The position numbers were made by a program, and so were the translations under genes. From the NCBI GenBank assembly GCA_016933055.1, contig JAFGBS010000028.1:150001-182000 (forward strand): DNA of 32,000 nucleotides, read 5' to 3'. Below the pieces are notes generated by a model. It searched no databases and had not been told where the DNA came from. It worked only from the letters and a program-made list of their open reading frames with translations. The stretch comes from Promethearchaeota archaeon. GTDB lineage: Archaea; Asgardarchaeota; Lokiarchaeia; Sigyniarchaeales; Promethearchaeaceae. Positions 3 to 15,300 of this stretch are shown piece after piece (the stretch's first letter is position 1; each line of letters starts with the position of its first letter).

Positions 3-194
3 TGCCCTCAACCCTTATTAGAAACCAGAACAGCTTTGAACCAATTGGAAATAAATCAAATTTTGGAAGTTTATGCAGATGATCCCGCAGCAGAATCGGA
101 TATCAAGAGTCTCGTAAAGCGAACTGATAATGAACTAGTGAAATTTGAAGACAATAATGGTGAATTTAGATTCCTCATTAGAAAATTAAAATAA
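3..194 (+). CDS. tusA: TusA/SirA-family sulfur carrier protein (5'-truncated by window edge)
   Basis: Not in ORF track. Frame 3 reads CPQPLLETRTALNQLEINQILEVYADDPAAESDIKSLVKRTDNELVKFEDNNGEFRFLIRKLK*, with the CPxP motif, the 'LEVxxDDPAAxxDI' segment and a C-terminal 'FxIRK' strand typical of TusA. Stop TAA at 192-194. Confidence 0.9.
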   Translation, partial: CPQPLLETRTALNQLEINQILEVYADDPAAESDIKSLVKRTDNELVKFEDNNGEFRFLIRKLK

Positions 195-205
195 ATGTGA
201 AATAT

Positions 206-568
206 ATGCCAGAAGATAAATTTCTATTATATGTTCAAACCTCCGACGACCCCGAGAGACAATACTCTCCCTTAGTACTGGCACAAACTGCCAAAGCTAT
301 GGATATCGAAGCGAAAGTATACTATCTTGGTCAAGGATTACGGATACTAAAAGGAGACACCGCAAAAAAAATCCAGATGGGAAATTTCCCTAGTATATAT
401 GACATGCAACAAAAATGCATGGAAATGGGAATTGAAATCTATGTTTGTGAAGCAAGCAAACAAATGCTTGGTTGGGATAAAATAGAATTAGCCCCCGGTT
501 TAAAAATTGTTGGTGCTGGAACCTTAAATGATTTAGTACTAGATGCAGCAGGTACCATGTGGTTTTAG
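206..568 (+). CDS. DsrE/DsrF-like sulfur relay protein
   Basis: About 120 aa with DsrE-type pattern: 'SPLVLAQTAKAMDIEAKVYYLGQG', conserved Cys in 'IYVCEAS', 'GAGTLNDLV'. ATG 206 preferred over GTG 197. Confidence 0.85.
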   Translation: MPEDKFLLYVQTSDDPERQYSPLVLAQTAKAMDIEAKVYYLGQGLRILKGDTAKKIQMGNFPSIYDMQQKCMEMGIEIYVCEASKQMLGWDKIELAPGLKIVGAGTLNDLVLDAAGTMWF

Positions 569-615: not shown

Positions 616-1806
616 ATGACGACACAACAACCGTTTGCGTGCGAGGATGTGTATCTAGACTATCAAAGTGCAAAGCCTGTCGATCCTCGGGTAATTTCCA
701 AAATGTTACCATATTTCAACGAACTGTTCGGAAATCCCTCCTCGTTGCATGGTGTCGGGGATGTAGCAACTAATATATTAGACGAAAACCGAGAATTGAT
801 TGCAAATTTTATCAACGCGAAACCAGAAGAAATTATATTCACATCCGGAGCAACTGAAGCAAATAATCTCGCTTTAATTGGTTATGCAATGAGAAACCAA
901 AAGAAAGGAAAACATATTATCATTTCTGAAGTGGAACATATCTCCATCCACAATATCGCAAAATATCTCACACGGCAGGGATTTGAAATCTCTAAATTGC
1001 CAGTAGATATTTACGGGCAAGTTATTATTCATAAACTAAAATCCCGCATTCGAAAGGATACAATTTTAATCTCTGTTGGATATGCTTCTAATGAAATCGG
1101 GACATTACAACCCATTCGAGAGATTGCAAAAATTGCCCGTGAGCGAGATATTGCATTCCATGTTGATGCGGTTGCCGCTGAAGGGCTAATTCCCATTGAT
1201 GTACAAAAGGATGATATTGATCTTCTTACTTTATCCTCAAATGATATTTACGGTCCTAGAGGAGTCGGTGCTTTGTATCTCCGAAAAGGATACCGGGTAA
1301 ATCCGATATTAATCGGTGGTGGGCAAGAACATGGACTACGTTCTGGTTCTGAGAATATTCCCGGAATTGTAGGTTTTGCTGAAGCTGCTCGTATTATGAT
1401 GGAAGAGATGAAGGAGGAGACCAATAGATTGGAATCCTATCGAAATAAACTTCTTGAAACTATCCCCAATCTAATTCCAAAGGCATATATTAACGGTCAT
1501 CCCACTGAGAGATTACCTAACAATGCTCATTTTCGCTTTGAAGCGATTGAAGGGGAAAGCATTTTACTATCACTTAAAGACGAAGGTATCGCTATCGCTA
1601 CTGGTTCTGCTTGTTCATCTAAAACCTTAGAACCTTCCCATACTCTTATTGCTACTGGTTTATTGCATGAAGAAGCTCATGGGAGTTTGCAAATTACGCT
1701 TGGTAGGTTTACTAAGGAGGAAGATGTTGATAAATTGATTAAGATACTACCTGGGGTCGTCTCACGTTTACGTAAATTATCACCTTTATGGAAAGAGGAA
1801 CAATAA
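616..1806 (+). CDS. iscS: IscS/NifS-family (class V PLP fold) cysteine desulfurase homolog with Lys-to-Asp substitution at the PLP site
   Basis: Motifs YLDY, FGNPSS, FTSGATEANN, EVEH, HVDA, YGPRGVGALY, RSGSEN and catalytic loop ATGSACSS. The canonical SxHK reads SSND. ATG 616 has AGGGTG at 601-606 upstream (track start GTG 604). Confidence 0.93.
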   Translation: MTTQQPFACEDVYLDYQSAKPVDPRVISKMLPYFNELFGNPSSLHGVGDVATNILDENRELIANFINAKPEEIIFTSGATEANNLALIGYAMRNQKKGKHIIISEVEHISIHNIAKYLTRQGFEISKLPVDIYGQVIIHKLKSRIRKDTILISVGYASNEIGTLQPIREIAKIARERDIAFHVDAVAAEGLIPIDVQKDDIDLLTLSSNDIYGPRGVGALYLRKGYRVNPILIGGGQEHGLRSGSENIPGIVGFAEAARIMMEEMKEETNRLESYRNKLLETIPNLIPKAYINGHPTERLPNNAHFRFEAIEGESILLSLKDEGIAIATGSACSSKTLEPSHTLIATGLLHEEAHGSLQITLGRFTKEEDVDKLIKILPGVVSRLRKLSPLWKEEQ

Positions 1807-1810
1807 AAAA

Positions 1811-2641
1811 ATGAAGTCAACAAACTATTCTGAAAAAGTTATGGACCACTTTCGGCATCCCCGAAACCAAGGGCACCTCATTGGTTTTGATGTGAGTTGG
1901 GGGAGGGTCGGAAATCCCGTCTGTGGGGATCTAATGGATATTTATATTCGGGTTCATGATGATATAATTATAGATATCAAGTTTGAAACCTTTGGTTGTG
2001 GTTCAGCTGTTGCTACCAGTTCTATGATTACCGAAATGGTGAAAGGTAAAACGCTGGATGAAGCATACAAGGTCTCAAGAGGCGATATAGCAGAAGAACT
2101 TGATGGTTTACCACCAATAAAGATGCATTGTTCCAATCTCGCTGCAGATGCATTAAAAAAGGCTATAGACAACTGGAGAGAAGGATTTCGAGTGGGAGAG
2201 AGGTTACCGGACGAACCCGAATTGGTATCTGCATGTGCATCAAGTGAAGTAGCAAAAAAAATTGCGAAATTGGGAAAAACTATCGAAGGCCTTGACGATT
2301 ATAAGGGTAATGGTGTATTTAATTATGTGAACAAATATGAGGATTTTTCTGGATTACGCACTCTTATCTTGTTTAACGGAGATAAATCAGTAGAAATCGC
2401 CATGAAACTAACAGAATACACAAACCGAGTTATTCTGGTGACAGATGAGCCTTCAGTGAAGACTGATGATCCTGAATTAAAAACCCGGTTAAAAACTTCT
2501 GCAGTAAAAATTCTCACACAATCTGAAATACTTCGTATAAGTGGAGAGGGAGAAGTGGAAAAAGTAGAATTATTAGAACTGGATGAAAAGGATAAATTTG
2601 AGCTATTCGTGGATGCAGTCATTGTATTAGAGTCAAATTAA
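1811..2641 (+). CDS. iscU: IscU/NifU-N Fe-S scaffold fused to a C-terminal thioredoxin-reductase-like NAD(P)H-binding domain
   Basis: N-terminal ~125 aa: YSEKVMDHFRHPRN, GNPVCGD, FETFGCGSA, PPIKMHCS (three Cys plus Asp and His). The C-terminal ~125 aa follows the TrxB NADPH-domain pattern by eye. Confidence 0.9.
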   Translation: MKSTNYSEKVMDHFRHPRNQGHLIGFDVSWGRVGNPVCGDLMDIYIRVHDDIIIDIKFETFGCGSAVATSSMITEMVKGKTLDEAYKVSRGDIAEELDGLPPIKMHCSNLAADALKKAIDNWREGFRVGERLPDEPELVSACASSEVAKKIAKLGKTIEGLDDYKGNGVFNYVNKYEDFSGLRTLILFNGDKSVEIAMKLTEYTNRVILVTDEPSVKTDDPELKTRLKTSAVKILTQSEILRISGEGEVEKVELLELDEKDKFELFVDAVIVLESN

Positions 2642-2667: not shown

Positions 2668-3531
2668 CTATAACTCTTCTACGTACCCTTCATTGGGTAA
2701 AATATCACATGGCTCGGAAAGGTCTATTCCATGTCCTTTTGTGAACATTTGCCGAAATGTAGCAATGAATCGAGCTGCGTCCGCCCCATCAATCACGTTA
2801 TGGTCTATGCTAAAACAGGCATGGAGAAATTCTCGATTCTTTAGCTCACCATTAATGAATCGCGGTTGCCAATCCGTTCCTCCAACTTGAAAACTGACAA
2901 CGTGTGGAGTCACTGCAATAGGATTACCTCCTTCTTGCAAAAACATTCCAATTGATGTTAATCCAATTGTTCCATTAAACTGTTTTTTCTGATGAGGGTT
3001 TCTCATTGCTTTTTTTAATAAGATTCTTCGTAGCCATCCTGGCATCTTGGTGAACATCTTTACCCTTCGGGCTTGTTTCTTTTTTTTATCATCATATTGG
3101 AGCCCTTTTGCTTTCCGAGTCTGTGCATTCCGAATTTCTTTGTGAATCTCTTTCCAATGTTTTTTTTGAGCTGCTCGAATAGTATAAGCGGTTGGTATCG
3201 GTCGTTCATACCCTTCGAACTGTCTTTCAACGATTGCGACAATATCAACATCTTCAAATATAATGATTTTCTTACGTCCTTTCATGTATGCATTTATATG
3301 GGGGTGTTCTTTGATTGCTTGCCCCAGTAAATATGCTATATACCCCGTAAAACTGTAGGGTTTACCATATTCATCTAAATGGGAGCGAAAATAGTTCCGA
3401 ACTTCTGTTACATCAATTACTCCTATTGCCGAGATATTATTCTTATTTCTACCCAAGCTAATAAAATCTATCTCAGCTTGTTTAGTTTTCGTGATGTTGC
3501 GAACTTCATACTTATAGTTGTATTTTCTCAT
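2668..3531 (-). CDS. 2-oxoacid dehydrogenase E2-type acyltransferase, catalytic domain only (paralog 1)
   Basis: GTIGLTSIGMF (cf. GTFTISNLG) and SIDHNVIDGADAARF (cf. DHRxxDG). No lipoyl or subunit-binding domain. ATG 3531 (MRKYNY) preferred over the track start at 3585. Confidence 0.85.
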   Translation of the reverse strand: MRKYNYKYEVRNITKTKQAEIDFISLGRNKNNISAIGVIDVTEVRNYFRSHLDEYGKPYSFTGYIAYLLGQAIKEHPHINAYMKGRKKIIIFEDVDIVAIVERQFEGYERPIPTAYTIRAAQKKHWKEIHKEIRNAQTRKAKGLQYDDKKKKQARRVKMFTKMPGWLRRILLKKAMRNPHQKKQFNGTIGLTSIGMFLQEGGNPIAVTPHVVSFQVGGTDWQPRFINGELKNREFLHACFSIDHNVIDGADAARFIATFRQMFTKGHGIDLSEPCDILPNEGYVEEL

Positions 3532-3632
3532 TACGTTCACCAGAAAAAGCAATAAATTTTGATCTGATAACGTTGGGGTATCCAATAAAAACCAATTGGT
3601 TATTATTCACATAATGTTTTGAAGGAGTGGTA

Positions 3633-3664: not shown

Positions 3665-4492
3665 ATGGCAAAATCAAAACCTTCAGCAACTTTCAAGTCG
3701 ATAACTAAAGCACGAGGAGTGATTATTGATTTATTAGAACATGGGTGGGCTGCTCACCGAATTCATGCTTATGGAGAAGAAGATGTTGATGATGCAATTC
3801 ATCGCCTAAAGGTTATCTCTGAGAAATTGGGTAGAAAAATTTCGGTTACAGCATTTTTTGTTACTTGTTGGGCGAGTACAGTAGCGAATCACAAGATTCT
3901 CCAAGCTTATCGCATCAATAAAAGGAATATGATCATATTTGATGAAGTTGATTGCGTGGTCAATATAGAGAAGGATATTGAAGGTAGAAAAGTACCTACG
4001 AGTTATATTGTGCGAAATGCAGACAAAAAGAATGTTATAGAAATTTCAGACGAAATTCGAGAGGCACAACAATCTAAATCGGATTCTGCTGTTAGCACAT
4101 CCAGTAAGAATAAACAATCTAAAGCTCGATTTCTGCTTAAATTTCCACGATTTATGCGGAAATTCTTTGTAAAACGAATGGTAAAAAATCCGTACATGAA
4201 AAAGGAATTATATGGTACTATCGGATTATCATCTATTGGTATGTTTACAATGGGAACAGGAAGCGCAATCTCATTAACAGTTCATGCTTCTAGCATAATA
4301 ATTGGGGGTATAGGAAAAAGACCTTGGGTGGTAAATGATAAAGTAGTACCAAGGTATGCTTATACAGGTACTATTACAATGGACCACGATTTAGTAGATG
4401 GGGGACCAGCTGCACGTGCAATAGCTGAATTTCGTACTAAAACACGGACAGCTTATGGATTGGATGAGATAGAGAAAAAATTGGGATTGTAA
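3665..4492 (+). CDS. E2-type acyltransferase, catalytic domain only (paralog 2)
   Basis: GTIGLSSIGMF and TMDHDLVDGGPAARAI; 275 aa, no lipoyl domain. Confidence 0.85.
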   Translation: MAKSKPSATFKSITKARGVIIDLLEHGWAAHRIHAYGEEDVDDAIHRLKVISEKLGRKISVTAFFVTCWASTVANHKILQAYRINKRNMIIFDEVDCVVNIEKDIEGRKVPTSYIVRNADKKNVIEISDEIREAQQSKSDSAVSTSSKNKQSKARFLLKFPRFMRKFFVKRMVKNPYMKKELYGTIGLSSIGMFTMGTGSAISLTVHASSIIIGGIGKRPWVVNDKVVPRYAYTGTITMDHDLVDGGPAARAIAEFRTKTRTAYGLDEIEKKLGL

Positions 4493-4585: not shown

Positions 4586-4608
4586 CCGACTAGCTTTTTT
4601 GTTTGTAT

Positions 4609-5442
4609 ATGAAGAAGTCCGATGTTCCCGTCAAAATTCTAAAAATGAAACCAGCAAGGAAAGTGATAATAGATCTTCTACATTTAGGATTAAAAGTATC
4701 CCGAATTCATGCCTATGGAGAAGATGATTGTACCGAAGCTTTACAACGCTTAAATGTTATTAGTGAGAAATTGGGACGAAAAATCTCATTTACCGCTTAT
4801 CTTGCAACTTGTTGGGCTTCTACAATTTATAATCACAAAATTATGCACGCATATCGAAGAAGAAATAAAATTGTTTTATTTGAGGACGTAGATGTTGCAT
4901 GCGTTGTAGAACGAGATATTGTAGACAAGAAAGTCCCTACGAGTTATATCATTCGAGAAGCTCAAAACAAAAACGTAGTTCATATTTCGGATGAAATTCA
5001 AGAAGCAAAGCAATCTAAATCAGAAACCGCTGCCACATCAACAAAAAAACTGAAACAAAGCAAAGCTAGTTTGATTACACGATTACCCGGATTCATTCGA
5101 AGATTTATTCTCAAACACATGACCAAGAATCCATGGCTAAAAAAAGAGATATTCGGTACTGTAGGTCTTTCCTCAATAGGAATGTTTACGATGGGAAGCG
5201 GAAGCGCTATTCCCGTAACAGTGCATAGTTCAACATTTATCGTCGGAGGGATCGCGAAAAAACCTTGGGTAGTAGGGAATGAAATAAAAATACGAGATAT
5301 TATAACTGGCACTATTTCGATGGATCATGATCTAGTTGATGGCGGTCCTGCTGCACGAGCGATTGCCGAACTCAGAAATAAAATCCGGGAGTGTCACGGG
5401 TTAAATGCAATTGAAAAGGAATTAGGAATTCAATACGATTAA
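4609..5442 (+). CDS. E2-type acyltransferase, catalytic domain only (paralog 3)
   Basis: GTVGLSSIGMF and SMDHDLVDGGPAARAI; closely similar to paralog 2 along its length. ATG 4609 preferred over TTG 4603. Confidence 0.85.
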   Translation: MKKSDVPVKILKMKPARKVIIDLLHLGLKVSRIHAYGEDDCTEALQRLNVISEKLGRKISFTAYLATCWASTIYNHKIMHAYRRRNKIVLFEDVDVACVVERDIVDKKVPTSYIIREAQNKNVVHISDEIQEAKQSKSETAATSTKKLKQSKASLITRLPGFIRRFILKHMTKNPWLKKEIFGTVGLSSIGMFTMGSGSAIPVTVHSSTFIVGGIAKKPWVVGNEIKIRDIITGTISMDHDLVDGGPAARAIAELRNKIRECHGLNAIEKELGIQYD

Positions 5443-5877: not shown

Positions 5878-7182
5878 GTGAAAGTATCAAAGAAAAAAGT
5901 GAGATACCTGGTTTTTGAGGGAGGTGGTGGTAAGGGGCTTATATACTTGGGAGTGGTCAAAGCATTAGGCGAAACTGGCGTTTTGGAATACATTACAAAA
6001 CAGATATCTGGGAATGAGGTTTACCGTTTAAATCCCAAGAAAATTCGAGGAGTAGCTGGGACAAGTGTCGGATCCTTGGCAGCCACTTTAATAGCATCGG
6101 GTTATACACCGGATGAATTACACCATATTTTAACCCAAGATTTTGGAATGTATGTCTTGGACAAAATTGATTATGGCACTATTCCAACCGTATCTACAAA
6201 AGAAAATCCAGGTTATATTGTTAAAAACCAACCAATTCCAGAAGACAGAGAAACTTTAGATAACTATTGGAGGAATTATATAAAGACCGACAAAAGATCG
6301 TTCAAACGAATAATGAGACTTCCGGGAAAAGCTTTTACTCATCTTAACCGGAAGTTTTTTGTCAGTCTAATGAAATGGTGGTTGGATTACAAAGAACGTC
6401 AGATCGCGAAAAATTCATCAGAATCCGAATTGGATGATTTTGATTCCATCTTTAAAATGGAGACAACAAAGACCGCATTTGAAAAAGTATTAGAATCCCC
6501 AGATACTATGAATAGTCTCAAATATGATCTTGGTCTATTTCTATCCGAATTTATTCGTGAGTTTATTGATTCTCAAATTGAAAAGAAATCTGGTATAAAA
6601 AATTGTACATTTCAGCAGTTTTACAATGAATTTGGCATTGATTTAGTCATAACAGGATTCAACATAACTAGAAATGAGATATTATATTTTCGTAATGAGG
6701 GTATTTGGAGAGATTTGTCCGTTGCAGACGCTGTTCGAATGAGCGTCTCCATACCATTAATCTTTAAGCCAGTATTTTTCTGCTATGATGATTCAAAGAT
6801 CTACCCGATACCAGAGAATGTGGATTTGAAGAAATGTGATTTGATGGTGGACGGGGGGGTCGGAAATAATTTTCCGCTGCATGTTTTTGATGAATCAAGA
6901 TCACGGTCATCTAGATTAAACAATCAAGTATTGGGTTTTAGACTGAAACGAACAAGAAATGAATGTTACGATGAAGAACTAACTCTAGCTCAATTCATAG
7001 AAAAAATAGGATTTTCATTGTTGGGGCAGACAACTGAGCTTCAAATTCGAACGGATGAAGAAAAAGATCAAGTCATTGAGCTTGAACATGAGGGAATAAA
7101 TACCCTTGATTTTCTCTATTCCGAAAAAACTCAAAGATATATAGATATGGCATATGATACCACAATGGAATATTTTGAATAA
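5878..7182 (+). CDS. patatin-like phospholipase
   Basis: Oxyanion loop VFEGGGGKG, nucleophile GTSVG, AVRMSVSIP and catalytic VDGGVGNNFP. TATA-like TTTATAA about 25-31 nt upstream of the GTG. Confidence 0.92.
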   Translation: MKVSKKKVRYLVFEGGGGKGLIYLGVVKALGETGVLEYITKQISGNEVYRLNPKKIRGVAGTSVGSLAATLIASGYTPDELHHILTQDFGMYVLDKIDYGTIPTVSTKENPGYIVKNQPIPEDRETLDNYWRNYIKTDKRSFKRIMRLPGKAFTHLNRKFFVSLMKWWLDYKERQIAKNSSESELDDFDSIFKMETTKTAFEKVLESPDTMNSLKYDLGLFLSEFIREFIDSQIEKKSGIKNCTFQQFYNEFGIDLVITGFNITRNEILYFRNEGIWRDLSVADAVRMSVSIPLIFKPVFFCYDDSKIYPIPENVDLKKCDLMVDGGVGNNFPLHVFDESRSRSSRLNNQVLGFRLKRTRNECYDEELTLAQFIEKIGFSLLGQTTELQIRTDEEKDQVIELEHEGINTLDFLYSEKTQRYIDMAYDTTMEYFE

Positions 7183-7190
7183 AAAAAAGG

Positions 7191-8393
7191 TTAGAGCTCG
7201 TAATGTTCTCTTTCTTTCAAAAAAATGGCCAAAATCGTACCACCTAAAAATAATATTGACATTACGACCATAAACCATTGGGCTACGATGAAAACAAATA
7301 ATATACCACTGATTTGTCCCGCTAACATTAAAACTCCAGTGGATGTTTCTTCGGGAACTGGATAGGTTATTTCAGCACCATAAGTTAAGCCAACAGGAAG
7401 TGCAGAGACCAATAAAAATCCAAATATGAAACCTAAGATAAATATGATAACAATATTTTGGGTGAATTCAAGGAGTAGAACCAATGGAACTGCACTTCCC
7501 ATTGCCAATAATAGAAAAGGTTTTCGTTTTTTGGTTTTATCTGAAAGCCCTGATAGTACCACAGCTCCAAAAATTCCCCCCAGAATCATTACACCGCCTA
7601 CAAATCCGACTGTTTCTGAATCTGGAATTTGATCGAAGATGGATTCAATTTTTGTACTGAGAGCGTTAAATGCACCCAAACCTATGAAAATACAGGTTAG
7701 GAGAATAAGGAAATCTTTGGAGAGAAAGAGTTTTTTCACGCCATCCCACATCAATACTTTTGTTTTTTCAGCATAGGGATTTGGAGGACTTGGGGGTTTC
7801 TGTCTTACGAACATAATATATAAAACTGAAATTCCAATTCCAAAAATTCCATAACTTAGTAGTAACACATTCATACTGTATGCTTCAAATAAGATTGGAG
7901 ATACAACCATTCCAATAATGCTTCCAAGGAGTACAGACATAGTTCCCAATCCGGTTGCCATAGTCTTTTCGTTTTCTGTAAACCATGTCGCAGCCACTTT
8001 AGTACTAGCGTTGAGAACAAAAGGTTGACCAATTGCAATTCCAATTTGCATCAATAAAACCCAAAGAAAATTTGTGTTATTAAATGCTCTAAGTAATCCA
8101 AAAACACCTGTTAAAATTACACCAACACCTACTCCCCAGCGTAATCCCCATTTATCAATTAAATAACTTGCAAGAAAATTGATCGGAATATATGCATATA
8201 GAAAAGTTGCAGTAAGTTGCTCTATGTGAAATGCCGTTACTCCCATATGGGTTGCGGTAGCATCGGTAATTGGCGCAAATGTAAGCCAAAAAATCTGTGT
8301 GACTATTCCTATTAACACATACATAATCAAGACTATCCAGCGATAAGGATATGCCTTGTATTCAGATGAAACTGTTTCATTCATGATAATCAT
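7191..8393 (-). CDS. MFS transporter, FLVCR/SLC49-like
   Basis: About 12 hydrophobic segments; N-terminal YPYRWIVL...FWLTFAPI; MFS loop motifs LIDKWGLR and LSDKTKKRK; ELTYP-like EITYPVPE. The start could be the third Met (MNETVSS). Confidence 0.85.
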   Translation of the reverse strand: MIIMNETVSSEYKAYPYRWIVLIMYVLIGIVTQIFWLTFAPITDATATHMGVTAFHIEQLTATFLYAYIPINFLASYLIDKWGLRWGVGVGVILTGVFGLLRAFNNTNFLWVLLMQIGIAIGQPFVLNASTKVAATWFTENEKTMATGLGTMSVLLGSIIGMVVSPILFEAYSMNVLLLSYGIFGIGISVLYIMFVRQKPPSPPNPYAEKTKVLMWDGVKKLFLSKDFLILLTCIFIGLGAFNALSTKIESIFDQIPDSETVGFVGGVMILGGIFGAVVLSGLSDKTKKRKPFLLLAMGSAVPLVLLLEFTQNIVIIFILGFIFGFLLVSALPVGLTYGAEITYPVPEETSTGVLMLAGQISGILFVFIVAQWFMVVMSILFLGGTILAIFLKEREHYEL

Positions 8394-8470
8394 CTACATG
8401 TCAGTATGTAAGTTAAAAAAACTAGATCTCAATTGAAATTTCACAATGGGAACAAATAAGAAAATAAGAA

Positions 8471-9772
8471 TTAATGGTTCTGATGTTGTATATAATTAAT
8501 GATGAGATAGGTCTCTACAATTATGAAACTCACAATGTCAATATAAGTAACCAGAGCACAAATATTTAGCGGAAAAAGTGTCCCACTGATTATAATTCGT
8601 GCAAGATAACAAGTCATATAAAACGGAAGAAGGGAAATCAACCAAATTATTGATTTCTCTGGAAATGATCGTTGTTTAAATTTTCTAAATATTAATCCTT
8701 TCTGGTATAACGTGTACAGGGGTATGTCCAATAATAGAATTATGAGAATTCCCATCCATGTTTCCAACTCAAAACCAATTCCTAACGCTTCTAGTGCTCC
8801 GTTCAATCCCCCTCTCAGACTTTCTTGGATTCCAAAAAGAAATAGACCTAAATGTGCTATAAGATAAGTTAGAATTTTTCCCCCCATGGTGTTTTTAGGG
8901 TAATAAGGGAAATCAATATCTGCCGATTGGGGCTGGTTGCGAGTCTTTCGATAGTAAAATATCATTACTAAGATCCCTATGACGAATCCGGTAAAATATT
9001 CCCATAAGGACCAGAACGGTAATCCCCAATCCAAATTATTACGGCCTATAGCTTGCCACACATCTGCTATACTGAATCCGATTCCGAAAAAAATCATTAT
9101 CATCAGAGAATCCCCAACAAATTTACACTCTTTTCCTGCAAATCCCAAATAAATCAAAACTGGAATAATAGCAAACGCTACTGCAAAATTATCCCTCATC
9201 GCTTTATAATTACGAGCAGTTCCATCCAGACCATTTATATACACTTGGTAGGTAAGAGGTGAAATGTGGGGGATTATGGCACGTGCAATTAATATCCCTA
9301 ATACCCAACTTGCAATGAAAATCACCAAACTTAACCAAAAATCATAGAGAGTATATTGATTTTTCCTACTAAACATATATCCTCCCAGAAATAACGCAGC
9401 TAATGTACTCCATGCAATACCACATACAAAAAGCCAGAAATACCCATACCACCAAGGCACTATAATGCCAAATCTATCATACACTCCCGGATATACCCAA
9501 GGAATACCTGCTTGTCCTACTAAAGTTCCCCATCCCCTCCGGAGTACTCGAAATAGAATTACAATCACACCAAAGATATATGGATTGAATTTTTTTCGTG
9601 GACCAAACACAATTGACAAAAAGAGTAATAATAGAAGCATCGCAACAGTAGGATCACTTGTTCCAGATCCCCGAATGTGCCATCCTATACCAAATAGGAG
9701 CGCTCCAATTATTGTGATCCCGAATTTATTTCTCACTCCAATAATCGATTTTGATTCAAAGGATTTTTCCAT
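8471..9772 (-). CDS. uncharacterised polytopic membrane protein
   Basis: Ten or more hydrophobic segments, with conserved-looking motifs GWHIRG, WYGYFWLF and WSLWEYFTGF. ATG 9772 (MEKSF) preferred over 9808. Confidence 0.7.
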   Translation of the reverse strand: MEKSFESKSIIGVRNKFGITIIGALLFGIGWHIRGSGTSDPTVAMLLLLLFLSIVFGPRKKFNPYIFGVIVILFRVLRRGWGTLVGQAGIPWVYPGVYDRFGIIVPWWYGYFWLFVCGIAWSTLAALFLGGYMFSRKNQYTLYDFWLSLVIFIASWVLGILIARAIIPHISPLTYQVYINGLDGTARNYKAMRDNFAVAFAIIPVLIYLGFAGKECKFVGDSLMIMIFFGIGFSIADVWQAIGRNNLDWGLPFWSLWEYFTGFVIGILVMIFYYRKTRNQPQSADIDFPYYPKNTMGGKILTYLIAHLGLFLFGIQESLRGGLNGALEALGIGFELETWMGILIILLLDIPLYTLYQKGLIFRKFKQRSFPEKSIIWLISLLPFYMTCYLARIIISGTLFPLNICALVTYIDIVSFIIVETYLIINYIQHQNH

Positions 9773-11403: not shown

Positions 11404-12243
11404 TTAAAGATGCACTGATTTTATTGAACGATAACCTGCTGCATTGGTGATTTTTTTCACTCTTTCTACTAGTTTGGGATCTTCATTACCTAATGATTCA
11501 TTCTGTTCCAGTTTCAATAAAATACGATCCAAATCTGTGTATTTCATATCTAAAGCAAATTCATCGGTTACCCCTGGCATAAGATCGGGCGAGGGGGATT
11601 TATGAATAATTACTTCGGGTATGTCTAATGCATGAGCTAATTCATATACTTGAGTCTTATATAGATGCGCAATAGGTGCGATATCCGATGAATCATCACC
11701 ATATTTAACAAAAAATCCAGAAACAAGTTCTGTTTTGTTTGTACATCCAACTACCGCATATCGGAGTCGTTCAGCGTAAAAATACTCCAAAATCATGCGA
11801 AGTCGATGTTTAATCCTATAATAAGCAAATCCTTTACGCATTTTTTCTGGTCCTGCATTATGTAAATCGTCAATAAAAGGATCTTCACTTACGGCACTCA
11901 TGGTTTTTCGGGTCCATTTTTCTTGGAATTTACGGGGAAATAACCATGCGGGTGGAAATAAACGGTAAACACCTATAAATCGCAAAACCCAAGTTAATTT
12001 CATGACTTTATAGCCTATTCCAAGAGAATTAGCTACAAGTTTAGACTCTTTCAAAGTGTTCTTAGAAGAATCTCGATCTGGCATTAATAATCCTAAAACT
12101 TTTTCCTGACCTAATGCCAATACCGTTAACTTTGCCGTGACAGCGGAATCAATTCCTCCTGAGATTCCAATCACAGCCCCTTTATAATGATATTTATAGA
12201 TTTTCTCCCGGATGAATTCTACAATCTCGTCAATCTCCACCAT
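11404..12243 (-). CDS. nadE: NH3-dependent NAD+ synthetase
   Basis: GISGGIDSAV PP-loop, NKTE..GFFVKYGD, APIAHLYKTQV, SPSPDL..G.TDE. No glutaminase domain. Confidence 0.93.
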   Translation of the reverse strand: MVEIDEIVEFIREKIYKYHYKGAVIGISGGIDSAVTAKLTVLALGQEKVLGLLMPDRDSSKNTLKESKLVANSLGIGYKVMKLTWVLRFIGVYRLFPPAWLFPRKFQEKWTRKTMSAVSEDPFIDDLHNAGPEKMRKGFAYYRIKHRLRMILEYFYAERLRYAVVGCTNKTELVSGFFVKYGDDSSDIAPIAHLYKTQVYELAHALDIPEVIIHKSPSPDLMPGVTDEFALDMKYTDLDRILLKLEQNESLGNEDPKLVERVKKITNAAGYRSIKSVHL

Positions 12244-12366
12244 ATAATTCTAAACTCGAGAGTATTTATTAAATCATTTATGAAATTTTAGAAATATATT
12301 GACGCAATACTAATCATGTTTAAAATTTATATCAGCAATTTCTTTTTATCAGTGGGTGGTAGGTAG

Positions 12367-15300
12367 ATGTATCATTTTCAGGAATATCAAGATATCGAAA
12401 TAACGGTTTACAATCCCTTTATCTGCACTTTAGTGGGGATAGTGAACTTGAATTTAGACAATAACATCGCTATATGCTCGTTAGAAGATGATTCTGGCAA
12501 CCGAATTGTCGGATTTTTCTATCAAAAATTCGCAGATCTGCTTTCTGATCATCACTTACAAACCCGGATACCTTTCAAAATAAGTATAGTCGCAGGTGAT
12601 ATTAAAAATCAAGGAGAAAAACAGTTCTTCGAAGTATATCAATGTATATTTGAGAAGGATTTTTTAATAAATAGCAGTTTATTGGCATCACACAGTTATT
12701 GTGAAATGTCCACTTATCTTAATAGTCATATCCATGTACATTCTCCCTTTAATCCATCCCAGATTTTCGGTATCGTTTACCATGATTATTTAATGTATTT
12801 ATTTGAAGATCAAGAATTATTGAAATTACCCATAGAAGATCCGAAAATCTCTCTAAAGGTTAGAATCGCATTTCAACAAGCAATATTTCGCAACTGGAAA
12901 CCTCTTGCAACTTTTAATATTGATGAAAACCTCTATTTAGATTACTTTTTGACATATTTTGGTGAACGAGAAATAGAATTCATCAATTTTGAACTGAAAA
13001 AATTAAAACCATATGGTGATGACTGCTCCTTTCAAGCTGAGGTTATGGTTCGTTCGCGAAATCTGGGATTACAAGGGAGGGTTGATCGCATTTTATGGAA
13101 CAAGAATAAAAACTCGTTTATCTTATACGAAACAAAAACAGGTCGAACTTCTTTTTCATCGGAGAACACTGCAAAATTTCAATTAATGGCTTATTCTTTA
13201 ATTTTAAATGAGTACTATTCAAAACAACTAGAAGGCTTATTTCTTGAATACCCCAGAAATGATCTTCAAGATCGGTTAAAATTGATAGAATATGATGAGA
13301 AACAAATTGTTCGTTTAATAAATATGCGTAATCAAATTTGGGCAATTAGTATTGGTAAACGACCTGAAGAGGGACCGTTCAAGAGCTGTTCTTCTGAATG
13401 TTTTCAAAAAGATGTTTGTGCTTTTTATTGCTTGCGTTCTTTCTTAACAAAACATTGTATTGAATGTGACCGCTGCAATTATAATCCCATTCTGCTTCGA
13501 AAGGAGGATTTTGAAGAATTTCGTAGAATTAATGTGTACTATGATTGGTTTTACCAATTTTTAGAAATGGAATATCTGAATAATCAAGATTTATTATTAG
13601 AATTAGGGTTACCATCAAAAGATCGAGAATCTTTGGGAAATTGTTTTTCAAGAGTGGTAATAGCTGATTTACTACGGGAAATGAGTGAAAATGATGGAGA
13701 GACTAATTCAAATAAATTTTGGATCAAATTTGGTCGTGAAAACAATTATGACTCAGATTTTACGAATACCCGTATGGATTCTTCAGATTATATATTAATC
13801 ACACCGCAAAATTATCGTCCCCTCACCTTACAATCAATTCCTGGAATTATACATAATATTCAGAAGCACCATGTGATAGTAGAGGTTACTTTAGATTATT
13901 TCTCCCAAGTCTCAAATTACTCCAAAGATACAATATTTCGAATTGACATGATAACCTCAAATCGAATTATTAACAATGAAAAATCCGCTTTAGACGCTTT
14001 TCTTCGAATCCCATATCATAAAGGTTATGAAAATCTCAAACAAATTCGAAAATATTTAATCAATTTCAATATCAAACTTGCGGAAACATCAATACCTCTT
14101 AAGAAAGAAATTCAAGATAAATTAAAAAAAAAGCATTATAACACAGATCAAATCAGCGCAATACAAAAATCCCTATCCTTCGAGGATCTTCTCTTAATTC
14201 AAGGACCTCCTGGAACAGGAAAAACTACAGTAATAACAGAAATAGTACACCAATTAAACAGAAAGATGGAGCATATACCAAATTTTATAAAATCCCATAA
14301 ACCAAAAAAAGAGGAACAAAACAAAGAATTCAAGCGAAATAAAAATGAGAAGGATAAAAATCAAATTTACAATGAATCAACTAATCAAGTTCCGGATTTC
14401 GAGGTCGAAAATTACTACATACGAAAAAAGATTCTCATAACTGCTTATACTAACCGAGCTGTAGATACAATGGTGGAAATGCTCTTAAAAAAGTATCCAT
14501 CAATTGATATACTCCGCATTGGAGCAGAATTATCGGTGTCCAATTCGGTTAAACAATATTCTATAGATTTTAAATGTAAGAAGCAAGTAAAATTCGATGA
14601 CGGTCATTTATATACCGTGAATTCTTCGAAAAATGCTCATGATTTGATTAACAATGCTAGCATAATTGCAACTACATGCTTAGGTGCTAACTCAGTATTA
14701 TTACAAGATATAGAATTTGAATATGTGATAATTGACGAAGCAGGACAATTAATTGAACCTGCTGCACTTATACCAATATTAAAATCCAAACGCGTCATAT
14801 TAGTTGGAGATGATGCTCAACTACCTCCTATCTCGGTGAAAGAACAAAATCCATTGCTTAGCTCAGAATATTTTACTGAAAAAAAATATTTACATGGATT
14901 TGAAGGAACAATTCTTGACTATCAGCAAGGAAATAAAGATACTACTCAAATCATTGATAGTCGAAAACAAATATTCCTAAAAGAATTAGAGCAGTTAGGT
15001 ATCAATCCTACAGATACGTTAAGTATTTCACTATTCCAGCGATTGAAACGAATTTTTCAAAGAAGTGATTTTTATATTTTACTCACACATCAGTATCGGA
15101 TGCATAAATCTATCTGTAAATTCGTTTCCGATCAATTTTACGAATCAAAACTTGTACCAGGGGAAATTAATGGTACAAATATAGGCGATCAGTCGGTGTC
15201 TATTTTTTACAAAGCACATAACATAAAATTAAACGGGCATATTAAAGAAAATAATTTGTCAGTGATACCATTTTTAAAAATTTGGCAACCCCATTTACCT

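Follow-up and report, generated by a model that had tools for sequence, protein, structure and literature searches.

A stripped NAD(P)H domain fused to the IscU scaffold of an Asgard archaeon and its predicted docking on a lysine-less IscS-IscU complex

Within a stretch of 32,000 nucleotides from a Promethearchaeota archaeon (contig JAFGBS010000028.1, positions 150,001 to 182,000; hereafter the window) one gene joins an IscU-type scaffold for iron-sulfur (Fe-S) clusters to the NAD(P)H domain of a thioredoxin reductase (TrxR)-like flavoprotein that has been stripped of its flavin adenine dinucleotide (FAD) domain. Our preferred reading, which leans on structural modelling and to which we would give roughly an even chance, is that the gene supplies the working Fe-S scaffold of an MIS-type system and that the relic domain would be kept as a tethered protein-protein module on the IscS-IscU complex. 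The analysis also derived the phylogenetic link between the truncated fusion and full-length IscU-flavoprotein fusions, the predicted docking site and the covarying residues of IscS. A preliminary description of this DNA, made from its letters alone, knew of no IscU with this architecture, and in a search of open-access papers and preprints no account of the truncated or of the full-length fusion came up either, the database labels for both being 'NifU-like' and 'Fe-S cluster assembly scaffold'.

The protein belongs to the IscU/MisU family. Pfam NifU_N (PF01592) covers residues 6-123 with an E-value of 6e-46 (156 bits against a cut-off of 22), Foldseek matches the domain to the IscU structures 7c8m, 4eb5 and 3lvl, and E. 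coli IscU is 55% identical to it, with C37, C63 and C106 falling on C38, C63 and C107 in the pairwise alignment. These three cluster ligands are accompanied by D40, H106 and an LPPIK motif (100-104), and all of them are invariant among relatives. As the fused gene is the only NifU_N locus in a genome that is 91% complete, with no second found, it is the working IscU of that genome, in which a SufB-like gene is also encoded. Behind the IscU domain follows a short linker with a predicted local confidence (pLDDT) below 50 over residues 135-155 in the AlphaFold model of the whole protein, and no remnant of an N-terminal FAD segment is recognisable in it. Its length falls between 16 and 21 residues in 18 of 20 relatives, against 31 in the window protein (27 if residues 128-154 are counted). 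The model of the whole protein reached a predicted TM score (pTM) of 0.51 and no intramolecular docking was read from it.

The remainder of the protein (the C-domain) lies in the segment 2270-2641, residues 154-276, which the preliminary description had aligned by eye with the NAD(P)H domain of TrxR, noting the lack of an FAD domain, and this identification was borne out by both sequence and structure. A sequence search of the PDB returned the Thermus TrxR-like protein 2zbw over residues 131-247 (E 2e-9) and the B. subtilis ferredoxin-NADP reductase (FNR) 3lzw (E 8e-6). An AlphaFold model of the domain on its own, built with 30 relatives in the alignment, had a pLDDT of 95.3 and superposed on the NAD(P)H domain of 2zbw (126-250) with a VIA Z of 19.6 and a root-mean-square deviation of 1.7 Å over 121 of its 122 residues, while Foldseek matched the same structure with an E-value of 1.2e-12. 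Dozens of TrxR, AhpF and FNR chains superpose on the model at Z 18-19.5, and residues 118-246 of E. coli TrxR do so at Z 17.7. Among the Pfam models PF00070 (Pyr_redox) gives 20.4 bits in the whole protein and 22.5 on residues 139-276 alone, with a cut-off of 22, and the scores for PF13738 and PF07992 are under their cut-offs. The likeness to a reductase domain is thus far above chance, and it is strongly supported that the C-domain has the complete NAD(P)H-domain fold of a TrxR-like flavoprotein with the FAD domain absent. This fold is of the Rossmann type; neither the alpha-beta sandwich of frataxin nor a four-cysteine ferredoxin fold was found.

The sites that the preliminary description had listed as altered are altered in the way it said. 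NYVNK stands at the position of the TrxB CxxC and the C-domain is without any cysteine, the IscU-fused and FNR-like relatives also being cysteine-free at the CxxC position. F-N-G-D-K-S (188-193) is found where full-length relatives carry G-G-G-D/N-S/T-A, and T-D-E (211-213) where they carry H-R-R/K. No member of the truncated family has the loop's first glycine (F, Y, H, D, E, K or T stand there instead). The glycine at 190 is retained by 86% of the sequences, some members having S or D, and T211 is conserved with variable residues at the next two positions (DE, EE, PE, EL, SS, PS, RF, RG). There is no FAD-binding domain: the IscU part and the linker are followed by an end at the NAD(P)H-domain boundary, the protein stopping at VDAVIVLESN, where full-length enzymes continue into the second FAD-domain segment. 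With no FAD domain, no cysteine and no cluster motif, the C-domain as it reads in sequence cannot act as a reductase or transfer electrons by itself, which agrees with the earlier view of a module that is dead on its own, its dinucleotide loop and 2'-phosphate site being degenerate. Canonical dinucleotide binding also appears unlikely because the loop glycine and the positions after T211 are not conserved. Since both the FAD domain and the nucleotide motifs were tested and are absent, the protein falls outside TrxB and the FNR-like reductases. The net charge of the C-domain averages about -9 over its family.

An exhaustive search with the C-domain alone, made without a profile, recovered the truncated family together with a 443-aa protein in which IscU is joined to an entire TrxR-like flavoprotein. 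Full-length fusions of this sort, about 444 aa in size, are common in Candidatus Methanoperedens and other Methanosarcinales and occur in the Asgard Jordarchaeia; they carry the motifs GGGPAG, GGGNSA, HR[H/K] and GD, and in one closed Jordarchaeia-like genome (G117) the fusion is a 449-aa frame in a TusA-IscS context with a lysine-less IscS. A profile of the truncated family scores the fused full-length flavoproteins at 82-94 bits and stand-alone TrxR-like proteins at 50-77 bits, with P0115, which was counted as stand-alone and is probably a fused gene with a mis-called start, at 85 bits. The CATC-bearing TrxR of the genome itself reaches 33 bits. A maximum-likelihood tree of 40 domains groups the truncated forms in a single clade (support 100/100) on a long stem of 1.3 changes per column, and this clade lies inside a group (91/87) with all seven full-length fusions, the one probable mis-called fusion and one stand-alone protein, P0189. 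An acidic hairpin 'DLDEDEEYEL' and a strand 'VEKV' are found in the truncated and fused forms only and not in the stand-alone enzymes.

The position of the domain within the flavoprotein family makes it secure that the full-length form came first and the truncated form later, and the ancestor was likely already fused to IscU, a step with moderate support. The truncated fusion most likely arose once, from a full-length IscU-flavoprotein fusion that lost both of its FAD-domain segments, a loss that would have been followed by a burst of change and then by purifying selection; the long stem with conservation after it suggests a new constraint. The nearest kin of the C-domain are FNR-like enzymes without a CxxC and IscU-fused flavoproteins. 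A degenerate TrxB that had lost its CxxC, which is how the preliminary description had read the domain, is rejected on this account, the clade to which the domain belongs never having had the motif.

The fusion is widespread. Seventeen close relatives have the same architecture with C-domain identities of 74-82%, as do more distant proteins from Promethearchaeota and Thorarchaeota, and when 400 genomes of the phylum were searched with a C-domain profile, nearly every genome of the window's class, and a second large Asgard family as well, proved to have strong matches (E <1e-39) inside open frames of about 260-300 aa. A domain pattern scan of the GTDB genome set yielded 234 loci, among which the lineages named are Promethearchaeota, Thorarchaeota, Hermodarchaeota, Hodarchaeota and Sigynarchaeum. 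Across the Asgard lineages sampled (Promethearchaeota, Thor-, Hermod-, Hod- and Sigynarchaeia) the standard form of IscU is this fusion. Identity to relatives is 42-53% in the C-domain against 65-76% in the IscU part, and with relatives from other families the C-domain shares 33-50% of its residues, including 11 invariant columns (G160, G168, R183, A197, R206, V207, G245, E250, E259, L265 and D268). These data strongly support an ancient architecture under purifying selection across several Asgard classes.

The preliminary description had named an assembly chimera, with the fusion missing from all relatives, as one of the findings that would undo its reading. With the fused frame present in most genomes of the class and in a second large family, and with 234 loci in the GTDB set, this is ruled out, and a gene-calling artefact is rejected with it, the same single frame recurring in hundreds of genomes, closed ones included. 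The pair of lysine-less IscS and IscU with the relic was also seen on five contigs (L094, L111, L138, L139 and L143; GC content 49-67%) from metagenome-assembled genomes (MAGs) titled Coriobacteriia, Eubacteriales, Smithella, Actinomycetes and Deltaproteobacteria, which may represent horizontal transfer into bacteria or mis-binned archaeal contigs.

The partner of the fused IscU is an unusual IscS. Directly 5' of the fused iscU in 20 of the 21 loci compared, IscS has lost the lysine that holds pyridoxal phosphate (PLP), with SSND (residues 207-210, nt 1234-1245) where E. coli has SGHK, so that Lys is replaced by Asp; SSND is invariant in 19 of 19 IscS partners of fused IscU. The loop cysteine C333 is intact (GSACSS), and the closest solved relative is the equally lysine-less IscS2 of A. 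fulgidus (E 2.6e-142). As the adjacent IscS-IscU pair stands in an operon without HscAB, Fdx or IscA genes, the operon being where these were looked for, the system is an MIS-type minimal IscS-IscU system. A DsrE-like gene is present in 17 of the 21 loci, the window counted, and a TusA-sized gene in 13 of 20 related loci. The order TusA-DsrE-IscS-IscU is repeated in most of them, and in the window the four genes lie on one strand with short gaps, an arrangement that suggests a persulfide relay into the desulfurase-dead IscS. In one related genome (L048, G165:C9) two IscS-IscU pairs lie about 3 kb apart, at 7109-9100 and 12029-13606. A lysine-less IscS with a fused IscU makes up one of them; in the other the IscS has its PLP lysine and is paired with a plain IscU of 128 aa.

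In order to place the C-domain on this complex we predicted the structure of IscS (19-row alignment) with IscU residues 1-127 (20 rows) and the C-domain as the scored partner (30 rows). The docking score (ipSAE) was 0.70, the three runs giving 0.73, 0.70 and 0.69, and the best of three controls scored 0.00. In the calibration of the method 58 of the 80 solved complexes attained this mark, as did 2 of the 110 mismatched pairs, a yardstick that is only roughly valid for a job with custom alignments and three chains. The partner was modelled with a pLDDT of at least 88 and at least 76% of the contacts were common to the runs. We know of no comparable complex that has been solved so far, for which reason the score is unlikely to come from the memory of the model.

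On IscS the predicted contacts are E105, S126, P129, I132, K140, S143-R144, I345-G348 and L350-H351, and on IscU they are G34, N35, V37 and C38; the C-domain contributes G181, R183, N205, R206, I208, K233, L235, Q237, E246, G247, E250, E256, D258, E259, D261 and F263-V267. Within the C-domain this interface is more conserved than the rest (mean frequency of the top residue 0.77 versus 0.57, permutation p 0.0006) and takes in all the invariant charged residues, R183, R206, K233, E250 and E259. The IscS side varies with the kind of IscU it serves. E105, K140, I345 and H351 are present in 19 of 19 fusion-partnered sequences, whereas the corresponding residues of IscS proteins partnered by plain IscU are K, E, L and T in the second pair of L048 and K, E, R and D in E. 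coli, the charges at 105 and 140 thus being swapped between the two groups. The predicted docking fits with this covariation, with the conservation of the interface and with the narrow range of linker lengths.

The contacts fall on a region familiar from other systems. In a pairwise alignment with E. coli IscS, C333 of the window IscS is matched by C328 and I345 by R340; the basic patch is retained in part, with R223, K224 and R227 opposite E. coli R219, R220 and R225. Counting 12 residues on from the loop cysteine, we take I345 to be the counterpart of R393 in human NFS1. C38 of the window IscU aligns with E. coli IscU C37, which corresponds to Cys69 in human ISCU2. In E. coli the IscS substitution R340E abolishes binding of CyaY and ThiI and lowers binding of IscX and TusA (PMC2854127). 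R393 of NFS1 makes a salt bridge to the C-terminus of FDX2 in its 'proximal', electron-transfer-competent pose, and FXN, which touches Cys69 of ISCU2, competes with FDX2 for the R393 region (PMC11618653).

The mechanism that we draw from the model is plausible and testable, and as yet unproven. The relic would sit on the IscS-IscU complex beside the assembly site, touching IscS behind its Cys loop (I345-H351) and at the hairpin around K140, together with the Cys38 loop of IscU, and would fill part of the cleft for ferredoxin and frataxin that one IscS protomer and IscU form jointly. From there it might act as a stabiliser or a gate of the complex, give the Cys38 loop its shape and govern how sulfur and electron donors gain access, without itself carrying electrons. 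The ancestral fused reductase would have docked at the same place, bringing its flavin to the assembly site, and after loss of the flavin domain the docking module would have stayed as a structural or gating element. More tentatively, and as a possibility we would not rate as probable, the relic could be a tethered counterpart of frataxin or ferredoxin that has settled permanently in the effector cleft of the lysine-less IscS-IscU complex, where it would gate the entry of sulfur and electrons; Asgard MIS systems would then have internalised this step, and the full-length relatives would be self-contained electron donors of MIS systems.

Several points weigh against the reading of the relic as a module docked on IscS-IscU, in addition to the rough calibration. 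The docking comes from one structure-prediction job with a single IscS protomer, and both the reach of the linker and any clash with or contribution from the second protomer lie outside the prediction. Models of this type favour conserved surfaces, and the conservation enrichment therefore depends in part on the prediction itself. The covariation has two to three plain-IscU comparators, and kinship links the 19 sequences on the fusion-partnered side. In A. fulgidus the partner of the same lysine-less type of IscS is a plain IscU, and this IscS type can therefore do without the domain. The clade that unites truncated and full-length fusions has moderate support (91/87) and includes the stand-alone flavoprotein P0189. 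Lastly, the C-domain may still bind a nucleotide.

This last point leads to the suggestion, made in part already by the preliminary description, that the domain is a residual nucleotide or redox sensor in which non-canonical binding of an NAD(P)(H)-type ligand tunes the scaffold to the redox or energy state. The Rossmann-type fold is intact at high confidence, most sequences keep G190, S193, A197 and T211, beta-2 is often followed by an acidic residue (TDE, TEE), a trait of NAD-preferring folds, and by the geometry we infer the old nucleotide cleft would not be covered by an interface on the beta-meander and the 'bottom' of the sheet. However, no member of the family has a glycine at the first position of GxGxxA and some have S or D in place of G190, the residues behind T211 are free to vary, the Pfam models for dinucleotide domains reach their cut-offs at best, and the invariant residues lie elsewhere and are explained by the predicted interface. 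The idea is weakened by a family in which neither the glycine loop nor the ribose and phosphate positions are conserved, and we regard it as unlikely.

A docking domain was also foreseen in the preliminary description, there for a full-length TrxR-like or NADH flavoprotein that would supply electrons. Docking in kind has stood up, being now predicted on the protein's own IscS-IscU; the TrxR-like partner has not, for the genome has no close paralog of that sort. An adaptor that recruits an external electron donor, whether such a flavoprotein or a ferredoxin, to IscU would mimic the NAD(P)H-domain surface that normally faces the FAD domain or substrate. It would suit an ancestry among reductases fused to IscU, an electron donor of MIS systems that is still unknown (PMC13066941) and a strongly acidic C-domain, and with the basic patch of IscS partly kept a ferredoxin could still take part. 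Yet the family profile matches only the gene itself at E 1e-8 or better, and the one protein resembling the domain among 28 Pyr_redox_2 matches in the genome is the ordinary CATC-bearing TrxR, at 33 bits. No conserved flavoprotein or ferredoxin neighbour was found in 20 loci, where only TusA, DsrE and IscS are conserved, and the invariant surface residues are already explained by the predicted contact with IscS-IscU. The adaptor, too, seems improbable.

Less probable again is a dimerisation module, in which paired C-domains would join two IscU units, for instance to turn two [2Fe-2S] clusters into one [4Fe-4S] cluster. IscU dimers are reported to be part of cluster maturation in other systems (PMC8617193), and removal of the FAD domain would expose a former interdomain surface, but the invariant residues are already used by the predicted IscS contact. 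The dimer interface of TrxR-type enzymes is, moreover, formed by the FAD domains and not by the NAD(P)H domain. That the domain is an inert vestige with no specific role beyond folding or solubility is very improbable: the catalytic motifs are gone, a lysine-less IscS of the A. fulgidus type works with plain IscU (PDB 4eb5) and there are Asgard genomes with an additional, plain IscU pair (L048), but a full-length domain with an invariant charged surface is kept in at least five Asgard lineages and hundreds of genomes, with the identity to other families and the 11 invariant columns given above, the long stem followed by conservation suggests a new constraint, and the protein is the sole IscU of its genome.

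The features of the gene and of its surroundings are collected in Table 1. The three acyltransferase-like genes downstream have no Pfam match to a lipoyl or E3-binding domain and are not conserved beside iscU in relatives. A gene of about 795 aa, absent from the window, was seen near the fused iscU in six loci of one Promethearchaeota family (L049, L052, L053, L055, L058 and L063), directly after it in four and one gene away in one; in L052 there is a 344-aa fragment of it four genes from the fused iscU.

Table 1. Features of the fused iscU gene and its neighbours, in window coordinates
Feature	Position	Strand	Basis or remark
Whole gene, IscU/MisU scaffold with relic NAD(P)H domain	1811..2641	+	276 aa
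IscU domain, residues 1-127	1811..2191	+	Pfam NifU_N and structure matches
Linker, residues 128-154	2192..2272	+	predicted disordered, poorly conserved
C-domain, residues 155-276	2273..2638	+	NAD(P)H-domain fold as in TrxR-like flavoproteins, FAD domain absent
NYVNK, residues 171-175, at the TrxB CxxC position	2321..2335	+	alignments with relatives and 2zbw
Degenerate dinucleotide loop F188-N-G190-D-K-S193 replacing GxGxxA	2372..2389	+	alignment
T211-D-E replacing the HRR 2'-phosphate site	2441..2449	+	alignment
Conserved beta-meander, GEGEVE (245-250) and acidic hairpin/strand E256-V267	2543..2611	+	with R183, R206 and K233, predicted contact surface towards IscS and the IscU Cys38 loop
IscS/MisS partner	616..1806	+	ends 4 bp upstream of iscU
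DsrE-like sulfur-carrier gene	197..568	+	Pfam DsrE
TusA gene, cut by the window edge	3..194	+	Pfam TusA, E 3e-20
Three paralogous genes for the catalytic domain alone of 2-oxoacid dehydrogenase E2 acyltransferases	2668-3585, 3665-4492, 4603-5442	-, +, +	PF00198, E 1e-17 to 1e-22
Patatin-like phospholipase gene	5878-7182	+	ordinary, no evident tie to the Fe-S operon
MFS transporter gene	7191-8393	-	ordinary, no evident tie to the Fe-S operon

MIS systems have been proposed as ancestral Fe-S machineries, and a 2026 review counts their electron donors as unknown (PMC13066941). The evolutionary series that runs from IscU with a complete NAD(P)H/FAD reductase to IscU with a stripped and strongly conserved NAD(P)H domain points to a past site of electron entry, and to the surface of IscS-IscU that matches the ferredoxin/frataxin cleft of mitochondria as the place where the add-on acts. 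Since the fusion is the standard IscU of the sampled Asgard lineages and the sole IscU of the genome, reconstructions of Fe-S biogenesis in the archaeal relatives of eukaryotes must account for it. Should the gating of the cleft prove true, Asgard MIS systems would have internalised a regulation that bacteria and mitochondria run with exchangeable proteins.

Among known systems the closest is the IscS2-IscU pair of A. fulgidus (PDB 4eb5, 4eb7 and 4hvk; D199K variant 4r5f), which shares SSND in place of the PLP lysine together with the loop cysteine, an IscU domain about 60% identical (4eb5 chain C) and an operon whose core is just the IscS and IscU genes, chaperone and ferredoxin genes being absent from it. 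Its IscU is a single domain (138 residues, 4eb5_C), whereas that of the window is extended by a domain of 122 residues; its IscS has A, F and M where the window IscS has E105, K140 and I345, and in the window TusA and DsrE genes precede the pair. The TrxR-like FNRs (2zbw, YumC 3lzw and B. cereus FNR2 6gas) provide the best sequence and structure matches of the C-domain and share the absence of a CxxC, but each is an FAD enzyme that forms homodimers, has about 330 residues and possesses an intact NADPH site; of this architecture the window protein keeps the inserted NAD(P)H domain alone.

The full-length IscU-flavoprotein fusions (P0121, P0067 and P0182), uncharacterised and annotated only as 'NifU' or 'thioredoxin reductase', have the N-terminal IscU and the same lineage of NAD(P)H domain, a CxxC-less 'VYYxV' segment, the acidic 'EDExF/YE' hairpin and a TusA-IscS context with lysine-less IscS (G117). 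They keep both FAD segments (GGGPAG ... GD), GxGxxA and H-R/K-x, all of which the window protein has lost, and judging from these motifs they could plausibly act as reductases.

NifU is similar in concept only, as an IscU-type scaffold fused to a module from the electron-supply side; in this three-domain protein the central domain is redox-active and ferredoxin-like with a permanent [2Fe-2S] cluster and is joined by an Nfu domain (PMC13066941), in contrast to the Rossmann-type relic of the window protein, which lacks a cofactor motif. Frataxin/CyaY and FDX2/Fdx have no kinship with the relic in sequence or fold and are separate, exchangeable proteins, whereas the relic is tethered and without a cluster. 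Frataxin, ferredoxin and the relic domain are, however, all acidic, and the predicted contact points coincide at the position of E. coli R340 and human R393 and at the IscU loop of the first cysteine, so that the likeness of the relic to these effectors would be one of position, a hypothetical correspondence that follows from the docking model.

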